Made by a program: the position numbers and the translations under genes
Notes under the pieces: model-generated
Database searches by the model: none
Told to the model about the DNA's origin: nothing
Seen by the model: only the letters and a program-made list of their open reading frames with translations
Assembly: GCA_039815185.1 (NCBI GenBank)
Contig: JBCBZT010000004.1
Location: 128,001 to 192,000 of the forward strand
Source of the DNA: Cyanobacteria bacterium P01_A01_bin.123
Lineage (GTDB): Bacteria > Cyanobacteriota > Cyanobacteriia > Phormidesmidales > Phormidesmidaceae
DNA length: 64,000 bases
Reading direction: 5' to 3'
In this document: positions 57,287 to 64,000 of the stretch, piece by piece
Position numbering within the stretch: position 1 is the first letter of the stretch
How the letters are laid out: each line of letters begins with the position of its first letter

Positions 57287-58105
57287 TCATGGGCTCTTGT
57301 GAATTTGCTGTTCTAATCGATGAGCTAACCACAGATCCATAAACGGTCTAGGAGACTTTAAGCGCTTCCACAAAAATGCTGCATAGGCTTGCCGTCTCCG
57401 TTCAAGCTTCTGGGCAGACGCTGCTGGAGGTAGCAGCGGTTGGAGAAAACAATCTGGAATTTGTGCAATCACATCCTGCAGAACTTCAGTAGATAGCCTT
57501 GCGGTCAATTCCCTATCCCAGATATCCAAGTTACGAACCTTGTCCCAAAAGAGGTGACGATCCATCGCATACTTCATGCTGCGGGGAGACGATTCTCGAA
57601 CAGCAGACCAGTTATATTGGAAAGGAAGAGAGGCTCCGTGGTCGATCACCCAAAGTTTGTCTCGCCAACGCAGCAGATTTGGATTCCAAGCGGTGCGATC
57701 GACATTCATTACCAAGCTATCGAGCCAAAGCACCTGACAGGCAAGGTTCTCATCAATGGCCTCAATCTCGTTGGCATGGATATCTTTTGCCCCTTTCAGG
57801 TACTGAAAGCCCAAGTTGATGCCGTGGCTGGCCACGAGGAGATCTCTCAATTCATCTTCGCGGTCTTCGATTTTCAGCGAAGTATCGATTGAGATCAGCA
57901 CTCGACTTGGCATCCATAGCCCCAAAGCTTCAGCCAGCGCGGCAACAATGACCTCCGCTACCAGTGCCGATGTGCCTTGAGCTGCACCACGCAGCTTCGT
58001 CAAAAAATATCCGGCATCCGTTTCAATTAAGATGGGCCGTGAACTGCCAAGCTTCTGAGCTGAGACAACCCGGAGCGCAGAGTAGATTGGAATGGCATTA
58101 CCCAT
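57287..58105 (-). CDS. HipA-like (HipA_2 type) kinase
   Basis: GSSRP, KLRGAAQG...LVAEVI, NVDRT.WNPNLL, WVIDHGASL. Confidence 0.85.
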   Translation of the reverse strand: MGNAIPIYSALRVVSAQKLGSSRPILIETDAGYFLTKLRGAAQGTSALVAEVIVAALAEALGLWMPSRVLISIDTSLKIEDREDELRDLLVASHGINLGFQYLKGAKDIHANEIEAIDENLACQVLWLDSLVMNVDRTAWNPNLLRWRDKLWVIDHGASLPFQYNWSAVRESSPRSMKYAMDRHLFWDKVRNLDIWDRELTARLSTEVLQDVIAQIPDCFLQPLLPPAASAQKLERRRQAYAAFLWKRLKSPRPFMDLWLAHRLEQQIHKSP

Positions 58106-58307
58106 ACTTAAAATAGGATGCAGGGCTGGTTTGTGGGGCACACATCAAGGAAAAGTAAACTTGCCCGGCACCCCTACAGGTAAAATTATGGATCTCGGGT
58201 ACAGGCAAGATTGAGGGATTTAGTCTCATTTTTAGTAACCAGAGACAAGGGGAGAAATCTGGTTGCTAGGGTAATAATTGAGTTTCCCTGAGGAGGAGTT
58301 GTTCATA

Positions 58308-59429
58308 ATGCGCGTTCGTTACTTAGGCTTGAGTCTCGTCAGTGTAGTAGCAGTGGCAGGTATCAATCTGCCCATCGTTCAAAGGGCGATCGCAGATATC
58401 GGCCCCATCCCCCCAATGGCCCAGCAATTACCCAATGATCCACCTGGAGATGAATCGTCCTCCAGCCCCTCTAATCTCCCTACCTTAGTACGCAACAGCT
58501 TGCGATTGCACATTGCTCAAAATACTGGTGTCCCTTACTCGTTAGTGCAGGTTGTTAGCGCTACTGCCGAAATCTGGACAGATTCGTGTCTGGGGTTAGG
58601 TGGCCCAGCAGAATCTTGTTTGGCTGCACGCTATCCCGGTTGGCGAGTTGAACTCACTGATGGCAACCAAACCTGGATTTATCGCAGCGATCGCACCGGC
58701 AATATCCTCCGTCGAGAATCGCCACAAAATGAAGCGTCAGGCTTGCCGCCGGAAACCGCTCAACGGATTGTTGATACTGTAGCCAACGATCGAGGCCTGC
58801 TGCCGTCCCAAGTTGAGATTATTGCTGCCGAATCCCGTACCTGGGATGGTTGCTTAGGCATTTATCCCGAAGCCAATACCATTTGCACCCAAATTGCGAT
58901 CTCCGGTTGGCGCGTGATCGTAGCTACCCCAGATCAGGTGCAGGTTTATCACACCAACCAAGATGGCAGCAATAGTCGGCTCAACCCATTGCTGACCCAA
59001 GTGGGGGATGCTAGCATTGCGCCTCGATTTCTCACAGGCCCTTTGCCAACCACCTATGAAGCCCCACCCCAATCCGTGTTGACCATTATCACCAGTGGCG
59101 GAATTGCTGGGCGTATCTATAAGACAGTACTCTACAGCGATCGCTCAATAGTCGGCTTCGACATAATCGGCAATCAAATTAACACACCTGCGGATTTAGG
59201 CCGTTTATCATCCCAAGACTACAACACCTTTTTACGTTTGCTTGAGACCCAACAGCTAAGAACCTTTAATGGCCTCCACTATCCTTCCCCCGAAGGTGCC
59301 GCCGATGATATTACGGTCACTCTAATCTCCGGCACCAATCAAGTCATTCAATATTCCGATATTGCGGTCAATCAACTCCCGTCTAGCCTGCAGCTCATAC
59401 ATCAAGGCTGGTTTGAACTGATTAATTAG
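58308..59429 (+). CDS. Secreted protein with two Cys-containing repeats and a C-terminal domain
   Basis: Signal peptide; twice W.D.CLG....C....GW.V; C-terminal TSGGIAG...GAAD. Confidence 0.8.
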   Translation: MRVRYLGLSLVSVVAVAGINLPIVQRAIADIGPIPPMAQQLPNDPPGDESSSSPSNLPTLVRNSLRLHIAQNTGVPYSLVQVVSATAEIWTDSCLGLGGPAESCLAARYPGWRVELTDGNQTWIYRSDRTGNILRRESPQNEASGLPPETAQRIVDTVANDRGLLPSQVEIIAAESRTWDGCLGIYPEANTICTQIAISGWRVIVATPDQVQVYHTNQDGSNSRLNPLLTQVGDASIAPRFLTGPLPTTYEAPPQSVLTIITSGGIAGRIYKTVLYSDRSIVGFDIIGNQINTPADLGRLSSQDYNTFLRLLETQQLRTFNGLHYPSPEGAADDITVTLISGTNQVIQYSDIAVNQLPSSLQLIHQGWFELIN

Positions 59430-62010
59430 GGTGATGATCTGCCCGGCTAACCAGATCCGCCAGCGATTCTTGCCGCCATAATAGGGCTGTTGCATCCTCA
59501 ACAGGCAGAGGTTTGGCCCAATAGTAACCTTGGCCAAACTCGCAATCCATCGACCGCAGCGCCTCGGCTTGCGCTGGCGTTTCGACCCCTTCTGCAATCA
59601 AATCCATACCCAATGTATGTCCGAGGGAAATAATGGTGCGGATGATTTCGTGGTCCTCTCGACTTTCGTCCATCCTTTGCACAAAAGATAGATCGATCTT
59701 GAGGATATCCACTGGAAATCGACGCAGATGGTTAAGGGACGAATAGCCTGTCCCAAAATCATCCAGCCCCAACGTGCAGCCCAGGGATTTGAGTCGTAAC
59801 ATCAGATCGATCGCCACTTCAACATTACCCATCACCATACTTTCGGTAATTTCGAGTTTGAGCTCTGCCCCTTCGATGCCAGAATCACGAATGCTTTGAG
59901 CCAAGTGACCAATCAATTCGGGTTGTTCAAACTGGCGTCCAGAAATGTTGATGCCCATCATTAAGAGCTGGCTTGGAAATTGAGTTTTCCATTGGCGGAC
60001 TTGATGGCAAGCGGATTGGCAAATCCATTCGCCTAGGGGAATGATCAACCCAGTTTCTTCAGCCAAGGGAATAAACTGTTGAGGTGAAAGCAAACCCCGT
60101 TTAGGGTGATGCCATCGCACCAGTGCTTCAAACCCAACCACATTGCCACCATTGAGGGACATGATTGGCTGATAGTGCAACACAAATTCCTGGTTGTTGA
60201 TACCCTGGCGCAGATCTTTTTCTAGGGTGAATCGATCCACAGACTCTTCTAACATGCCTGCGGCAAATACTTGATAATGGGTCTCACCCAGAGATTTAGC
60301 GCGATACATCGCCGTATGGGCATCTCGCAGCAAATCTTCGGGCGTGTGTCGATATTCATGCTGGGTCAGCGCAATGCCGATGCTAGTGGTGATCACAATA
60401 GGCTGTTGATTAAGCCAGAAAGGATCTGCCAGCACCGTTTGCAGTTGGTCGGCGAGGGTCGTGAGGGTACCGTTATGACGTTGCTTACAGGCAAGCGCAA
60501 ATTCGTCACCACTCACCCTAGCTAAACGAACGGAACCGGGTAAGAGGGTATGCAACCGATCGACGATCAGCAGTAGCAGGCGATCACCCATTTGCCGTCC
60601 AAGACTTTGATTGATCAGTTGAAACCGATTCAGCCCTAGAAACATAACCCCCAAAGCGGATGACGGCTTGTCATGGGGTCGATGGGCTAATGATCGTGTC
60701 AGAGAACGGACAAAAGCACTACGATTGAGCAACCCTGTGAGGGTATCTCGAGTGGTGGCGTATCGCAGTCGGTGGGCCATGACAAAACCCAATCCCGCCA
60801 CAAAGCCCAAGGCAGGCTCCGCCATAGGAATCCAAATCAGCTGGCTAAATGAAATCCATCCGATGCCGCCAATCAGGCCCAGACAGACTGTCCCGGCCAC
60901 GCCAAAGGCTAAAGGATGGCGCAAACTCCACCCCAAACAACCGGCCACCGTTGCCCAACCCCAAAACCAGAGCCACTCTCCCCAACGCGGCCAAAATCGA
61001 AACAATCTCGGATTGTCAGAAGGAATATCGAGCAGTTGGCTGACCATCTGGGCATGGATGATTACCCCTGGCATCTGGAAGATATCTGATTGGGCAGAGC
61101 TATAGGGGGTATAGATCATGTCCTTTAAGCTGGGGGCAAAGGTGCCCACCAGCACGACTTTGTCGCGGATCCACTGAGGATTGACAGTGCCATTCAATAG
61201 TTGACTAAACGTGACGGTGTGGGCCACGTCCCGCCGAGTGCGATAGGGCAACATTACTTGATAGCCCCGAGTATCAGCCGTTTGATACCCCCCATCGGTG
61301 GCCTTTAGGGGAATCACGGGGCGATCGCCCATGAATAACGCATCTGGCGTTACGTCAAAGGTAATCCCCTCTGCTGCCAGATAGGCCAAACTCACCCGCA
61401 GTGCAAAGGAATAGTAATCTTGCTCTGCACCAGCGACAAACAGCAAATTGCGACGCAACACGCCATCTGCATCCAGTGTCAGGTTGTTAAAGCCCACTCG
61501 ATCAGCCTCAACCCCGGACGGCGGCGAAATGTCATGGGCCACATTCGTAATGACAATCAGGTTGTCAGCATGAAGCTGGGTTGCAAAGGCGGTTTGACCT
61601 GGAGGGACGACCATATCCCGGTAAAGATCTAGCCCGATTACTCGCGGTTGGTGCATTTGCAACTGGCTTAACCCCTGGGCCAACTCTTGATCAGATAGCG
61701 GCCAACCATAACGTTGTAAATCGTCTTCATTGATGGTGACAATCAACAACCGGGGATCTAAATCTGCATCGGGTTGCAGTTGAACAAATCGGTCAAAGAT
61801 CTGAAGCTCTAGGGATTCCAACACGCTGAACCGCTGCAGCCCCAAAAACAATCCAGTCAGAAGCGTACTTGAAACCAGCACTGAACGGCCTGCCACCCAA
61901 ATGATGCGAGGTAGGGGGCTTTTGTAAACGCTCAACTGTTGGATTTGCCGCAAACGCGATCGCAGTTGAGTCACTAGAGCAGCGATTGGCAAAGACACTC
62001 CAGACTTCAT
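59422..62010 (-). CDS. CHASE2-TM-GGDEF(degenerate)-EAL c-di-GMP phosphodiesterase
   Basis: CHASE2 (DPRLLIVTI, IGLDLYRD, DADGVLRR, MPGVIIHA), 3 TM, SGDEF, EALVRW, DDFGTGYSSL. Confidence 0.93.
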   Translation of the reverse strand: MKSGVSLPIAALVTQLRSRLRQIQQLSVYKSPLPRIIWVAGRSVLVSSTLLTGLFLGLQRFSVLESLELQIFDRFVQLQPDADLDPRLLIVTINEDDLQRYGWPLSDQELAQGLSQLQMHQPRVIGLDLYRDMVVPPGQTAFATQLHADNLIVITNVAHDISPPSGVEADRVGFNNLTLDADGVLRRNLLFVAGAEQDYYSFALRVSLAYLAAEGITFDVTPDALFMGDRPVIPLKATDGGYQTADTRGYQVMLPYRTRRDVAHTVTFSQLLNGTVNPQWIRDKVVLVGTFAPSLKDMIYTPYSSAQSDIFQMPGVIIHAQMVSQLLDIPSDNPRLFRFWPRWGEWLWFWGWATVAGCLGWSLRHPLAFGVAGTVCLGLIGGIGWISFSQLIWIPMAEPALGFVAGLGFVMAHRLRYATTRDTLTGLLNRSAFVRSLTRSLAHRPHDKPSSALGVMFLGLNRFQLINQSLGRQMGDRLLLLIVDRLHTLLPGSVRLARVSGDEFALACKQRHNGTLTTLADQLQTVLADPFWLNQQPIVITTSIGIALTQHEYRHTPEDLLRDAHTAMYRAKSLGETHYQVFAAGMLEESVDRFTLEKDLRQGINNQEFVLHYQPIMSLNGGNVVGFEALVRWHHPKRGLLSPQQFIPLAEETGLIIPLGEWICQSACHQVRQWKTQFPSQLLMMGINISGRQFEQPELIGHLAQSIRDSGIEGAELKLEITESMVMGNVEVAIDLMLRLKSLGCTLGLDDFGTGYSSLNHLRRFPVDILKIDLSFVQRMDESREDHEIIRTIISLGHTLGMDLIAEGVETPAQAEALRSMDCEFGQGYYWAKPLPVEDATALLWRQESLADLVSRADHHPN

Positions 62011-62053
62011 TCAAACAATAGTAATTATGACGTTCTCCCAGAATCTCATCTTT

Positions 62054-62200
62054 CTATCGGGTGCCGCCCCCAACCTGCCGCCCAGGGAAATTACCGCGAT
62101 CTGAACTGCCACCCTCAGCCCAGGCAGGCATAGCCATTGCCCCCAAAACGACAAAGGTCAGTAGGCCTATGGATACCGTTGCTCGTTTTAGGGAAATCAT
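62054..62200 (-). CDS. Small secreted peptide precursor (signal peptide + EGGSSDRGNFPGRQVGGGTR)
   Basis: Manual translation MISLKRATVSIGLLTFVVLGAMAMPAWA-EGGSSDRGNFPGRQVGGGTR*; purine-rich RBS; canonical n/h/c regions with AWA cleavage site; 43 bp upstream of the CHASE2 gene. Confidence 0.8.
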   Translation of the reverse strand: MISLKRATVSIGLLTFVVLGAMAMPAWAEGGSSDRGNFPGRQVGGGTR

Positions 62201-62810
62201 GAATAGCTCTCTTCTTTACTTATAAGCTCAGCAACAACGCTCAAAACATTTTGTTTGAAGATGGAGGTGTGTCTTCAGCTCAAGATCCCAAACTAACCTC
62301 TGACCCAGTGATGATTGAGGTTTGTTTCTTTAGGGATTTTTATTCCGTCATGTCTAGACTAGAGGGTATTCAACTGAAGAATAACCGTGATGACACCAGT
62401 ATTGAGTTATACCTAATTTAAAGACTGCTAAGTTTATATATAGTTTTAGACAACACCACGACTTTGAAAGGATTAGCGCTGTGCTTACACAATCGAACCC
62501 GGGTTGTTAGGGATTTAACTGATTCAGTATTTTGAGAGAGATTGGTATCATCTAACACATCTTAATGTGATAAAAATATAGGCTGAAATTACTTGGTTAT
62601 TGGGCTGATAACAGCGCTCGATTGAGTCATGAAGGGTGAGTGTTGCATGCTCGGGTCTGATCGACGGACAATTCTGAGAACCAGCAACAGACTCTGCTAA
62701 TAGCTGCTGACCCTCTGCGCAAAAATTCTATCAATCAGCGTTCCTTCTGCGAAGTCTGGGACAACCGTATTATGATGACGAATGAGCAGATTTAAGTTTT
62801 GTAAATTATT

Positions 62811-63434: not shown

Positions 63435-63559
63435 AGCCAGCCTAGGCCGGGATTGGGCGTTTCTTTGTAGCCAAAACTTGGGGTCTTGTTAATAATCACA
63501 ACTCATCCGGTAACGCTGGGTAAGACGGTGTTTTCTTGAATAGAGAGCAGGTTGTAACC

Positions 63560-64000
63560 ATGACACATCGTTTCATCCAAAGATTCGGGACTCGATTTGG
63601 GGCATTGCTGCTATTAGGACTGGCGATACCTACTGTGGGGCTGCTCCCAACATCGACAGCGATCGCCCAGGTAAGCACCGACCCCCATCAGCTGCTCCAC
63701 GACGGCATTAACGCCCTCAACCAAGGCAACTATCCCCTTGCGCTACAGCGGTTACAACTGTCTTTGAGTTTGTATCGGCGAGCAGGCGATCGCCTCTATG
63801 AAGGTGTTGTCTACAGTTGGCTGGGTTCGGTCTATGACGAGATGGGGCGCTATGACGACGCGATCGCGGCCCTAGAGCAAGCCTTAGCCATCAGCCAAGC
63901 AGTTGAAGATCGAGTCGGCGAGGGGGTAGCCCTTAATCAAATTGGATTAATTCATCAGCGACGGGGCAATGACGCCGAAGCGCTGGATGCCTACGAACAA
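63560..64000 (+). CDS. Secreted TPR protein (partial, runs off window end; possibly TPR-CHAT)
   Basis: MTHRFIQRFGTRFGALLLLGLAIP... signal, then TPR units GDRLYEGVVYSWLG / EDRVGEGVALNQIG. Confidence 0.85.
   Translation, partial: MTHRFIQRFGTRFGALLLLGLAIPTVGLLPTSTAIAQVSTDPHQLLHDGINALNQGNYPLALQRLQLSLSLYRRAGDRLYEGVVYSWLGSVYDEMGRYDDAIAALEQALAISQAVEDRVGEGVALNQIGLIHQRRGNDAEALDAYEQ

Follow-up and report, generated by a model that had tools for sequence, protein, structure and literature searches.

A mini-gene cut down from DUF928 beside a cyanobacterial CHASE2 receptor gene, and its product as a possible periplasmic peptide ligand

CHASE2 is a widespread sensor domain whose ligand was called unknown in 2023 in the available text on Leptolyngbya boryana Dgc2, a cyanobacterial CHASE2-GGDEF enzyme affecting motility and biofilm (PMC10581220). 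DUF928 (PF06051) and CHASE2 were noted once as neighbours, in the accessible part of one report (PMC5587647). In magnetotactic bacteria, MtxA (PDB 4Z29) is likewise an exported protein encoded before a CHASE2 receptor, in that case an adenylate cyclase, and the available sections of its description mention no peptide, ligand role or mini-gene (PMC4439547). Here we describe a 48-codon mini-gene located upstream of a CHASE2-GGDEF-EAL receptor gene in a 64,000-nucleotide (nt) stretch of DNA, hereafter the window, from Cyanobacteria bacterium P01_A01_bin.123 (assembly GCA_039815185.1, contig JBCBZT010000004.1, positions 128,001 to 192,000). The mini-gene is the 5' part of a DUF928 gene, it stops directly after the Arg of a conserved motif, and its product may serve as a ready-made ligand of the adjacent receptor. 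Unlike MtxA, it has no MtxA-like domain; unlike Dgc2, which lacks EAL and for which the accessible description gives no peptide or DUF928 link, the neighbouring receptor carries an EAL domain. The initial annotation, a model's reading of the letters alone, had held that no ligand is established for these sensors, and the accessible text of two papers indeed gives no direct ligand.

The mini-gene occupies 62054..62200 of the window on the minus strand, with its stop TAG at 62054-62056. Its 48-residue product consists of the leader MISLKRATVSIGLLTFVVLGAMAMPAWA and the mature part EGGSSDRGNFPGRQVGGGTR, followed by TAG. Residues 1-28 (62117..62200, minus strand) form a predicted Sec signal peptide with KR, a hydrophobic core and a P-A-W-A cleavage site, recognised by eye and from its alignment with the leaders of DUF928 orthologues. 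The predicted mature peptide of 20 residues (62057..62116, minus strand) ends in PGRQVGGGTR with the stop immediately after, and these last ten residues (62057-62086) are the DUF928 motif with Gln for its second Arg. A spacer of 43 nt (62011..62053, minus strand) separates the mini-gene from the receptor gene on the same strand; in orthologues, 174-194 codons of DUF928 body lie there. This layout agrees with the first description of the locus. The open reading frame (ORF) had been regarded as missed; it is indeed unnamed, but the exact protein is already called as a gene in the NCBI and Logan collections. The ribosome-binding site claimed for it is a purine-rich candidate, AAAGAAGAGAG (62207..62217, minus strand), 6 nt before the ATG, which does not match the canonical AGGAGG. 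A sigma-70-like site lies on the minus strand about 525 nt upstream; four such sites were found versus 1.8 expected, and the site is not used as evidence.

The receptor gene (59422..62010, minus strand) was assigned by Pfam, motifs and an orthologue tree, and encodes a protein of 862 residues with the order CHASE2, transmembrane, GGDEF, EAL, which is the candidate target of the peptide. Pfam places CHASE2 at residues 53-357, GGDEF at 420-576 and EAL at 598-834; the cyclase motif has the form SGDEF, those of EAL are intact, and many acidic residues of CHASE2 are invariant. A possible alternative receptor start is the TTG of Leu7 (window 61992, minus strand), with GGAG 5 nt upstream and a spacer then of 61 nt, and it matches the LP.LAT start region of L004, L005, L195 and L198.

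The mini-gene lies beyond chance because its motif ending is unique in the genome, PGxxxG[GA]G[TS]R plus stop having its sole case here among 709,553 stop-to-stop segments, and because it aligns to orthologous DUF928 N-termini. Single contigs of three studies cross the ORF, the stop and the spacer without a joint (X4 record 6, X5 record 9 and X8 record 10), the study of the X4 contig being possibly the source of the genome itself; the X9 contig was left out, having no cover over 62042-62143. A second allele on record (P0001) differs by one residue, A26V. These contigs and the variant allele show that the mini-gene is no artefact and that it occurs in more than one strain. A single-sequence homologue search with its protein returned the variant allele only, and an alignment search among proteins of 25-91 residues scored 570 candidates and kept three, the motif being too short for a database of that size. 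In X4 record 7, from a relative about 87% alike, a jump from 61968 to 62364 leaves a 33-base side and is too weak to read. No RNA data set was listed as holding the locus among sequencing runs, a result with no bearing on expression. The ORF is real, and it is probably translated and exported by Sec.

Descent from DUF928 is shown by the orthologous loci. Relatives of the receptor came from two sets: 61 related genomes, where 30 of the 59 matches were retrieved, and 173 genomes of the family, where all 24 were. A FastTree analysis of 52 receptors places that of the window within a 19-member clade (support 1.0), with L002 and L003 as its nearest relatives (0.97). A full-length DUF928 gene, with 174-194 residues after the motif, stands directly upstream of the receptor in 18/18 of the other clade members, and since it occupies the position of the mini-gene, the latter is a cut-down DUF928 gene. 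Its product aligns to the orthologous N-termini (35-44% over 46-52 residues; tblastn E 8e-5 to 9e-3), bearing out the earlier recognition of the motif, and 9-14 of its last 16 residues are identical to those of the 18 orthologues. It shares with DUF928 the export signal (by eye and alignment), the N-terminal motif PGRRxGGG[TS]R with one change, and the position before a CHASE2 gene, whereas the folded body of 174-194 residues, a beta-sandwich with a helical part, is absent. The Pfam model PF06051, which begins only at the GGG of the motif and has a family cut-off of 26 bits, gave no match to the product at E up to 1.

No DUF928 body was found in the 900 nt downstream of the mini-gene and no piece of it elsewhere in the genome. 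The likeness of the spacer to four orthologous genes did not exceed that of shuffled sequence (119-188 of 200 shuffles scored as well), and an apparent resemblance of the spacer to the DUF928 3' end was rejected when it did not beat shuffles. The statement that the frame after the stop does not look like DUF928 is thereby borne out. The claim of a motif-only gene rather than a broken one needs amending: full-length DUF928 at all the orthologous loci shows that a body was lost here, but motif-only genes that stop at this Arg occur repeatedly elsewhere. The initial annotation had also set two observations against its own proposal, full-length DUF928 at orthologous loci and a strain-specific short ORF; the first was found, but the ORF is species-wide. 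Many receptors of the wider group, outside the clade, have no DUF928 next door, and a protein-led metagenome scan confirmed no close receptor relative among 144 stretches. In L046, the DUF928 N-terminus carries the motif region twice in tandem, PPDRGSPGRLVGGGT followed by PPDRGIPGRREGGGTR, an arrangement that a multi-peptide precursor might show. A same-genus genome (L021:4314-4724) holds a short leader-bearing ORF with ERRGAGTRW, downstream of a CHASE2-GGDEF-EAL paralogue and overlapping a 258-residue frame on the opposite strand.

In full-length DUF928, the residue next after the motif Arg is Gly in 27/28 proteins. The pattern PGxRxG[GA]G[TS]R followed by a stop at four positions was searched in 401 genomes of the class, and rows read by eye were kept where they had the Arg, Thr/Ser and a true stop; the window's gene stands outside this count, its Gln breaking the pattern. 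A stop directly after the Arg gave 12 rows in nine genomes, ten of which (seven genomes, four families) are short ORFs that stand free and begin with a hydrophobic leader. L100 and L103 were left out (one a shadow frame, the other lacking a leader near the motif), and L110 was rejected as not fitting the tight pattern. The control stops gave three rows one codon earlier, one row one residue later and one row two residues later, all five being shadow frames in other genes. A binomial test over positions 0, +1 and +2 gives 10/10 (p 1.7e-5), or 7/7 by genome (p 4.6e-4), both inflated by kinship. The truncation point does not look random. As the class is defined by a stop after the motif, this position control alone is independent evidence for it.

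Wider scans extend the class. A GTDB-wide scan, with a pattern admitting Gln, gave 51 loci, among which all 13 with cyanobacterial titles and L147 are short leader-bearing ORFs; none of 35 others read by script is a leader-bearing mini-gene, and two more were left unread. Six Hyphobacterium matches and most other non-cyanobacterial pattern matches were rejected as shadow frames. In a metagenome scan, 15/53 loci are leader-bearing mini-genes. The pooled scans hold 42 loci with 27 distinct tails in 19 groups (less than 40% identity outside the motif), which are not proven independent origins because the linkers diverge fast. All 21 of the stops examined are TAA or TAG, not the product of one-step GGA-to-TGA nonsense. 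L096 alone has a decayed DUF928 body downstream (E 1e-7), and L101, L134 and L156 had little downstream DNA; descent from DUF928, shown for the window, is suggested for L096. The class-level result stands even if the window's copy is a remnant.

An exported CHAT-domain gene adjoins 12/18 of the clade loci, downstream in L002 and L003 and upstream in L182-L191, in line with the earlier remark that DUF928 genes neighbour both CHASE2 genes (18/18) and CHAT genes. The clade CHAT proteins are mutually 67-74% identical. No orthologue was found in the window's genome, which markers rate 99.99% complete and whose best match reaches 35-38%. One lineage appears to have lost both the body and its partner protease, because five of five tested sister genomes with full DUF928 and no adjacent CHAT gene have best CHAT matches of 46-50%, compared with at most 38% here. 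On the other strand, 1.3 kb from the mini-gene, the window carries a gene (63536-64000, plus strand, continuing to G000:C35:194472) for a TPR-CHAT protein of 978 residues that has a leader and in which the His/Cys motifs are intact; it was rejected as the cognate protease, with 36% over 140 residues to clade CHAT. Clan CD proteases include enzymes that cut specifically at Arg, such as separase, metacaspases and gingipain R.

Taken together, we put at about even the chance that the mini-gene peptide is a ready-made periplasmic ligand of the adjacent CHASE2 receptor, one that elsewhere would be released by cleavage from full-length DUF928. The mini-gene product would be exported and then trimmed by signal peptidase to a 20-residue periplasmic peptide, whose free ...G[GA]GTR-COOH end would be the active form. 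It would bind the CHASE2 domain of the neighbouring receptor and set its cyclic di-GMP (c-di-GMP) output; the invariant acidic residues of CHASE2 would be well matched to a ligand rich in Arg. In relatives, the exported CHAT protease may cut full-length DUF928 at R|G and release the same peptide, so that the mini-gene would be a protease-independent shortcut replacing the two-step route of DUF928 and CHAT. A periplasmic signal is a simpler reading than the quorum-like signal first proposed.

Structure prediction gives weak support to a complex of CHASE2 with the peptide. The CHASE2 domain was modelled with a predicted local distance difference test score (pLDDT) of 90. Co-folded with the last 30 residues of the product, it scored 0.54, versus 0.01 for the best of three controls; the runs gave 0.69, 0.20 and 0.54, with a contact agreement of at least 67% and a partner pLDDT of at least 51. 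Recall of a solved complex is unlikely, because no solved CHASE2 relative was found by PDB sequence search or Foldseek. The mark was reached by 116/157 solved and 2/215 mismatched pairs in the benchmark, and scores at or below 0.60 held only 18 solved pairs and both mismatches. In the model of a full-length orthologous DUF928, the motif has an ordered structure and pairs with the body through strand bridges (block pLDDT 84), an arrangement as compatible with a caged ligand as with a peptide binding to DUF928 bodies. The modelled DUF928 body is similar to the C-terminal domain of MtxA (E 3e-4, template modelling score 0.44-0.52, 13% identity).

Several observations weigh against the ligand proposal. 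The co-fold score lies in a band that is rated as mostly wrong for pairs not already likely on other grounds, and ten of the 30 residues of the partner belonged to the leader. The packing of the motif on the DUF928 body makes this body itself a candidate binder. The second Arg of the motif, replaced here by Gln, is invariant as PGRR in 18/18 orthologues and is Arg in 24/25 rows of alignment A3, and the change may be decay of the peptide; mini-gene L214, which has Ser at the same position where its relatives have Arg, eases that reading of the Gln. Six of the 18 clade loci lack a CHAT gene in the flank examined, and no cleavage-specificity data for these CHAT proteases turned up in a literature search, the cut after Arg being a presumed step. 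The allele was not found in other species among the 61 relatives and 173 family genomes. Moreover, a free C-terminus is not universal, because a conserved second family of 12 loci has the motif at an internal position, where the Arg is followed by Trp and 38-42 residues, and because P0002 and P0003 also continue beyond it. Members of that family (L083-L087, L090 and L104-L109) are small exported proteins with a leader, PGRR[VS]GGG[TS]RW and then 38-42 residues, with an AFASR-type tail at the end. The same two housekeeping-like genes flank several copies, and L109 lies divergently to a CHASE2-GGDEF-EAL gene.

The neighbourhoods of the mini-genes, examined over 0.6-5 kb on each side, tell against the proposal as well. 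A CHASE2 gene is near in only 3/19 groups (the window, L092 and L134), and the other groups adjoin TpsB, FecR-like, RTX or phage genes, or stand alone. ShlB-type TpsB adjoins three groups (L091, the L093 group and L129), two are followed by an exported FecR-like protein along with an SLH-porin (L098, a weak Pfam match, and L099, 42% identical to L098), RTX proteins adjoin two, and three lie in phage DNA (L095/L156, L147 and L166).

Variation at the locus bears on whether the mini-gene is anything but a relic. In contigs of two other studies, with 26 and 24 differing sites, variable sites number 8/411 in the receptor gene, 3/147 in the ORF and 28/443 in non-coding DNA; for the ORF against non-coding DNA, the two-sided Fisher p is 0.053. 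The ORF changes in these two contigs are two silent ones and M22I, which leave the mature peptide unchanged. Two of the four known ORF changes (M22I and A26V) alter the leader, a further point against the ligand proposal. The constraint on the mini-gene is suggestive only. A neutral history would have the DUF928 body deleted, the protease gene lost, a chance stop after the Arg and the ORF in slow decay, with a receptor that has another input or none. We hold this to be unlikely. It would account for a mini-gene unique among 19 clade members, for the Arg-to-Gln change at a clade-invariant site and for the borderline constraint, and receptors of the wider group often do without an adjacent DUF928. 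However, out of about 180 possible end codons the deletion ends just where mini-genes accumulate (10 versus 0, 0 and 0), the leader, frame and stop are intact in every allele read, and the spacer has no DUF928 likeness, yet the ORF keeps up to 14/16 of the tail residues.

A functional peptide could also have another target, CHASE2 being affected only indirectly. The peptide might bind DUF928 bodies and displace their own motif, act on exported CHAT as a product inhibitor or decoy, or act on TpsB or FecR-like proteins. The packing in the DUF928 model speaks for such a target, as do the three other DUF928 genes and 26 CHAT-like ORFs (by motif) that the genome retains beside its 15 CHASE2 matches, and TpsB (three groups) and FecR-like proteins (at least two) adjoin mini-genes about as often as CHASE2 does. 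Nevertheless, the mini-gene holds the DUF928 position directly before the receptor, the acidic residues of CHASE2 would favour this domain as a partner, and what complex support exists, weak as it is, concerns CHASE2, the sole pair co-folded. We regard another target as unlikely.

A role in cis only, in which translating the ORF aids expression of the receptor gene and the peptide is irrelevant, seems very improbable. The shared strand and the 43-nt gap would allow it, and no terminator-like site was found in the region, the spacer included; but it needs neither leader nor motif, most mini-genes have no co-directional receptor downstream, and the spacer RNA folds no better than shuffles (z -0.59). 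An assembly or sequencing artefact collapsing a full DUF928 gene, conceivable in a draft assembly that comprises 133 contigs and shows a contamination of 5.99%, has next to no probability, being already refuted by the junction-crossing contigs of three studies, with a variant allele on record and no other DUF928 piece in the genome.

If the periplasmic ligand proposal is widened into a whole, undescribed peptide-hormone circuit of cyanobacteria, it becomes doubtful. In such a circuit, DUF928 would be a caged precursor, CHAT would cut after the Arg, PGRRxG[GA]GTR-COOH would be the CHASE2 ligand, mini-genes, that of the window among them, would be repeated shortcuts around the protease, and phages would copy the motif, both on mini-genes and on proteins of the virion region, to steer host signalling. 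The last element refers to viral contigs in which longer frames of three unrelated kinds, 206-367 residues long, have precisely FPG[RN]R[VIR]G[GA]GTR-stop as their ending. The presence of this ending on unrelated phage proteins also counts in favour of the ligand proposal itself. They are frames beside a head-morphogenesis gene (L163:1504-2604 and L165:1504-2574), a frame after a portal gene (L164:1135-2127, with a metagenomic relative at L235:1151-1768), and a tail-lysozyme protein beside a T7-like terminase (L168:775-1530 and L171:1504-2259). Between L164 and L235, the terminal residues are kept and the stretch just before them differs. The S-CBP2 relative of L168 is a longer gene (425 residues). 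A fourth viral set of eight contigs (L261-L264, L271, L274, L275 and L277; about 43% GC) carries a basic ORF with the looser ending IPGFK[GS]G[AG]GTR-TGA, for which L261 has no Pfam match. The viral control with the stop at +1 gave four loci, of which the three read were all shadow frames. From these sequences, the phage endings may be mimicry of a host signal. A 214-residue frame with a leader-like start and no Pfam match (L221:239-880) ends in PPNRGIPGRREGGGTR-stop, the motif thus standing at the C-terminus of an unrelated protein.

Elsewhere in the window, a 383-residue leader-bearing protein with two repeated Cys-containing units (W.D.CLG ... PGWRV) is encoded at 58278-59429 on the plus strand; it has no Pfam family above cut-off, and its gene is convergent with the receptor gene, with an 8-nt overlap of the receptor stop. 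A HipA_2-family kinase gene lies at 57287-58141 on the minus strand.

A literature search that left most subscription journals outside turned up nothing on the motif, the mini-genes or a peptide ligand of CHASE2. Genes keeping ten conserved residues and a fixed Arg stop point to the minimal active unit of DUF928. If the proposal is true, it would assign functions to DUF928 and to the exported CHAT proteases, open a way into how c-di-GMP governs motility and biofilm in cyanobacteria, and perhaps provide an instance of mimicry by phages.

As for known systems, the Sinorhizobium meliloti CHASE2 cyclases CyaD1, CyaD2 and CyaK, together with NsrA and uL2, respond to a protease-sensitive basic protein signal (PMC13001267, PMC7529298). 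They differ in that the signal is foreign and acts via an outer-membrane protein, the output is cyclic AMP, and the accessible text does not describe direct CHASE2 binding. PatX/PatS are, in the available text, small exported cyanobacterial precursors matured by peptidase to an Arg/Gly-rich peptide, but with an RG[S/T]GR core and a cytoplasmic regulator, HetR, as target (PMC12756182). Having no such core, the window's peptide was rejected as a member of PatS/PatX/HetN. In Gram-positive bacteria, Phr/Rap and ComC/ComD combine a short leader-bearing precursor, whose C-terminal peptide is active, with a gene beside that of the receptor. The window's gene is likewise a small precursor of predicted export beside a receptor gene, with no sequence relation expected, whereas the receptor put forward here is the periplasmic CHASE2 domain of a c-di-GMP enzyme and its ligand would be carved from a larger folded protein. 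New here are the nested origin in DUF928, the co-loss of the protease, the stop-position test and the phage endings. The proposed pair would work like a peptide-receptor system of a known kind, here in an undescribed form.

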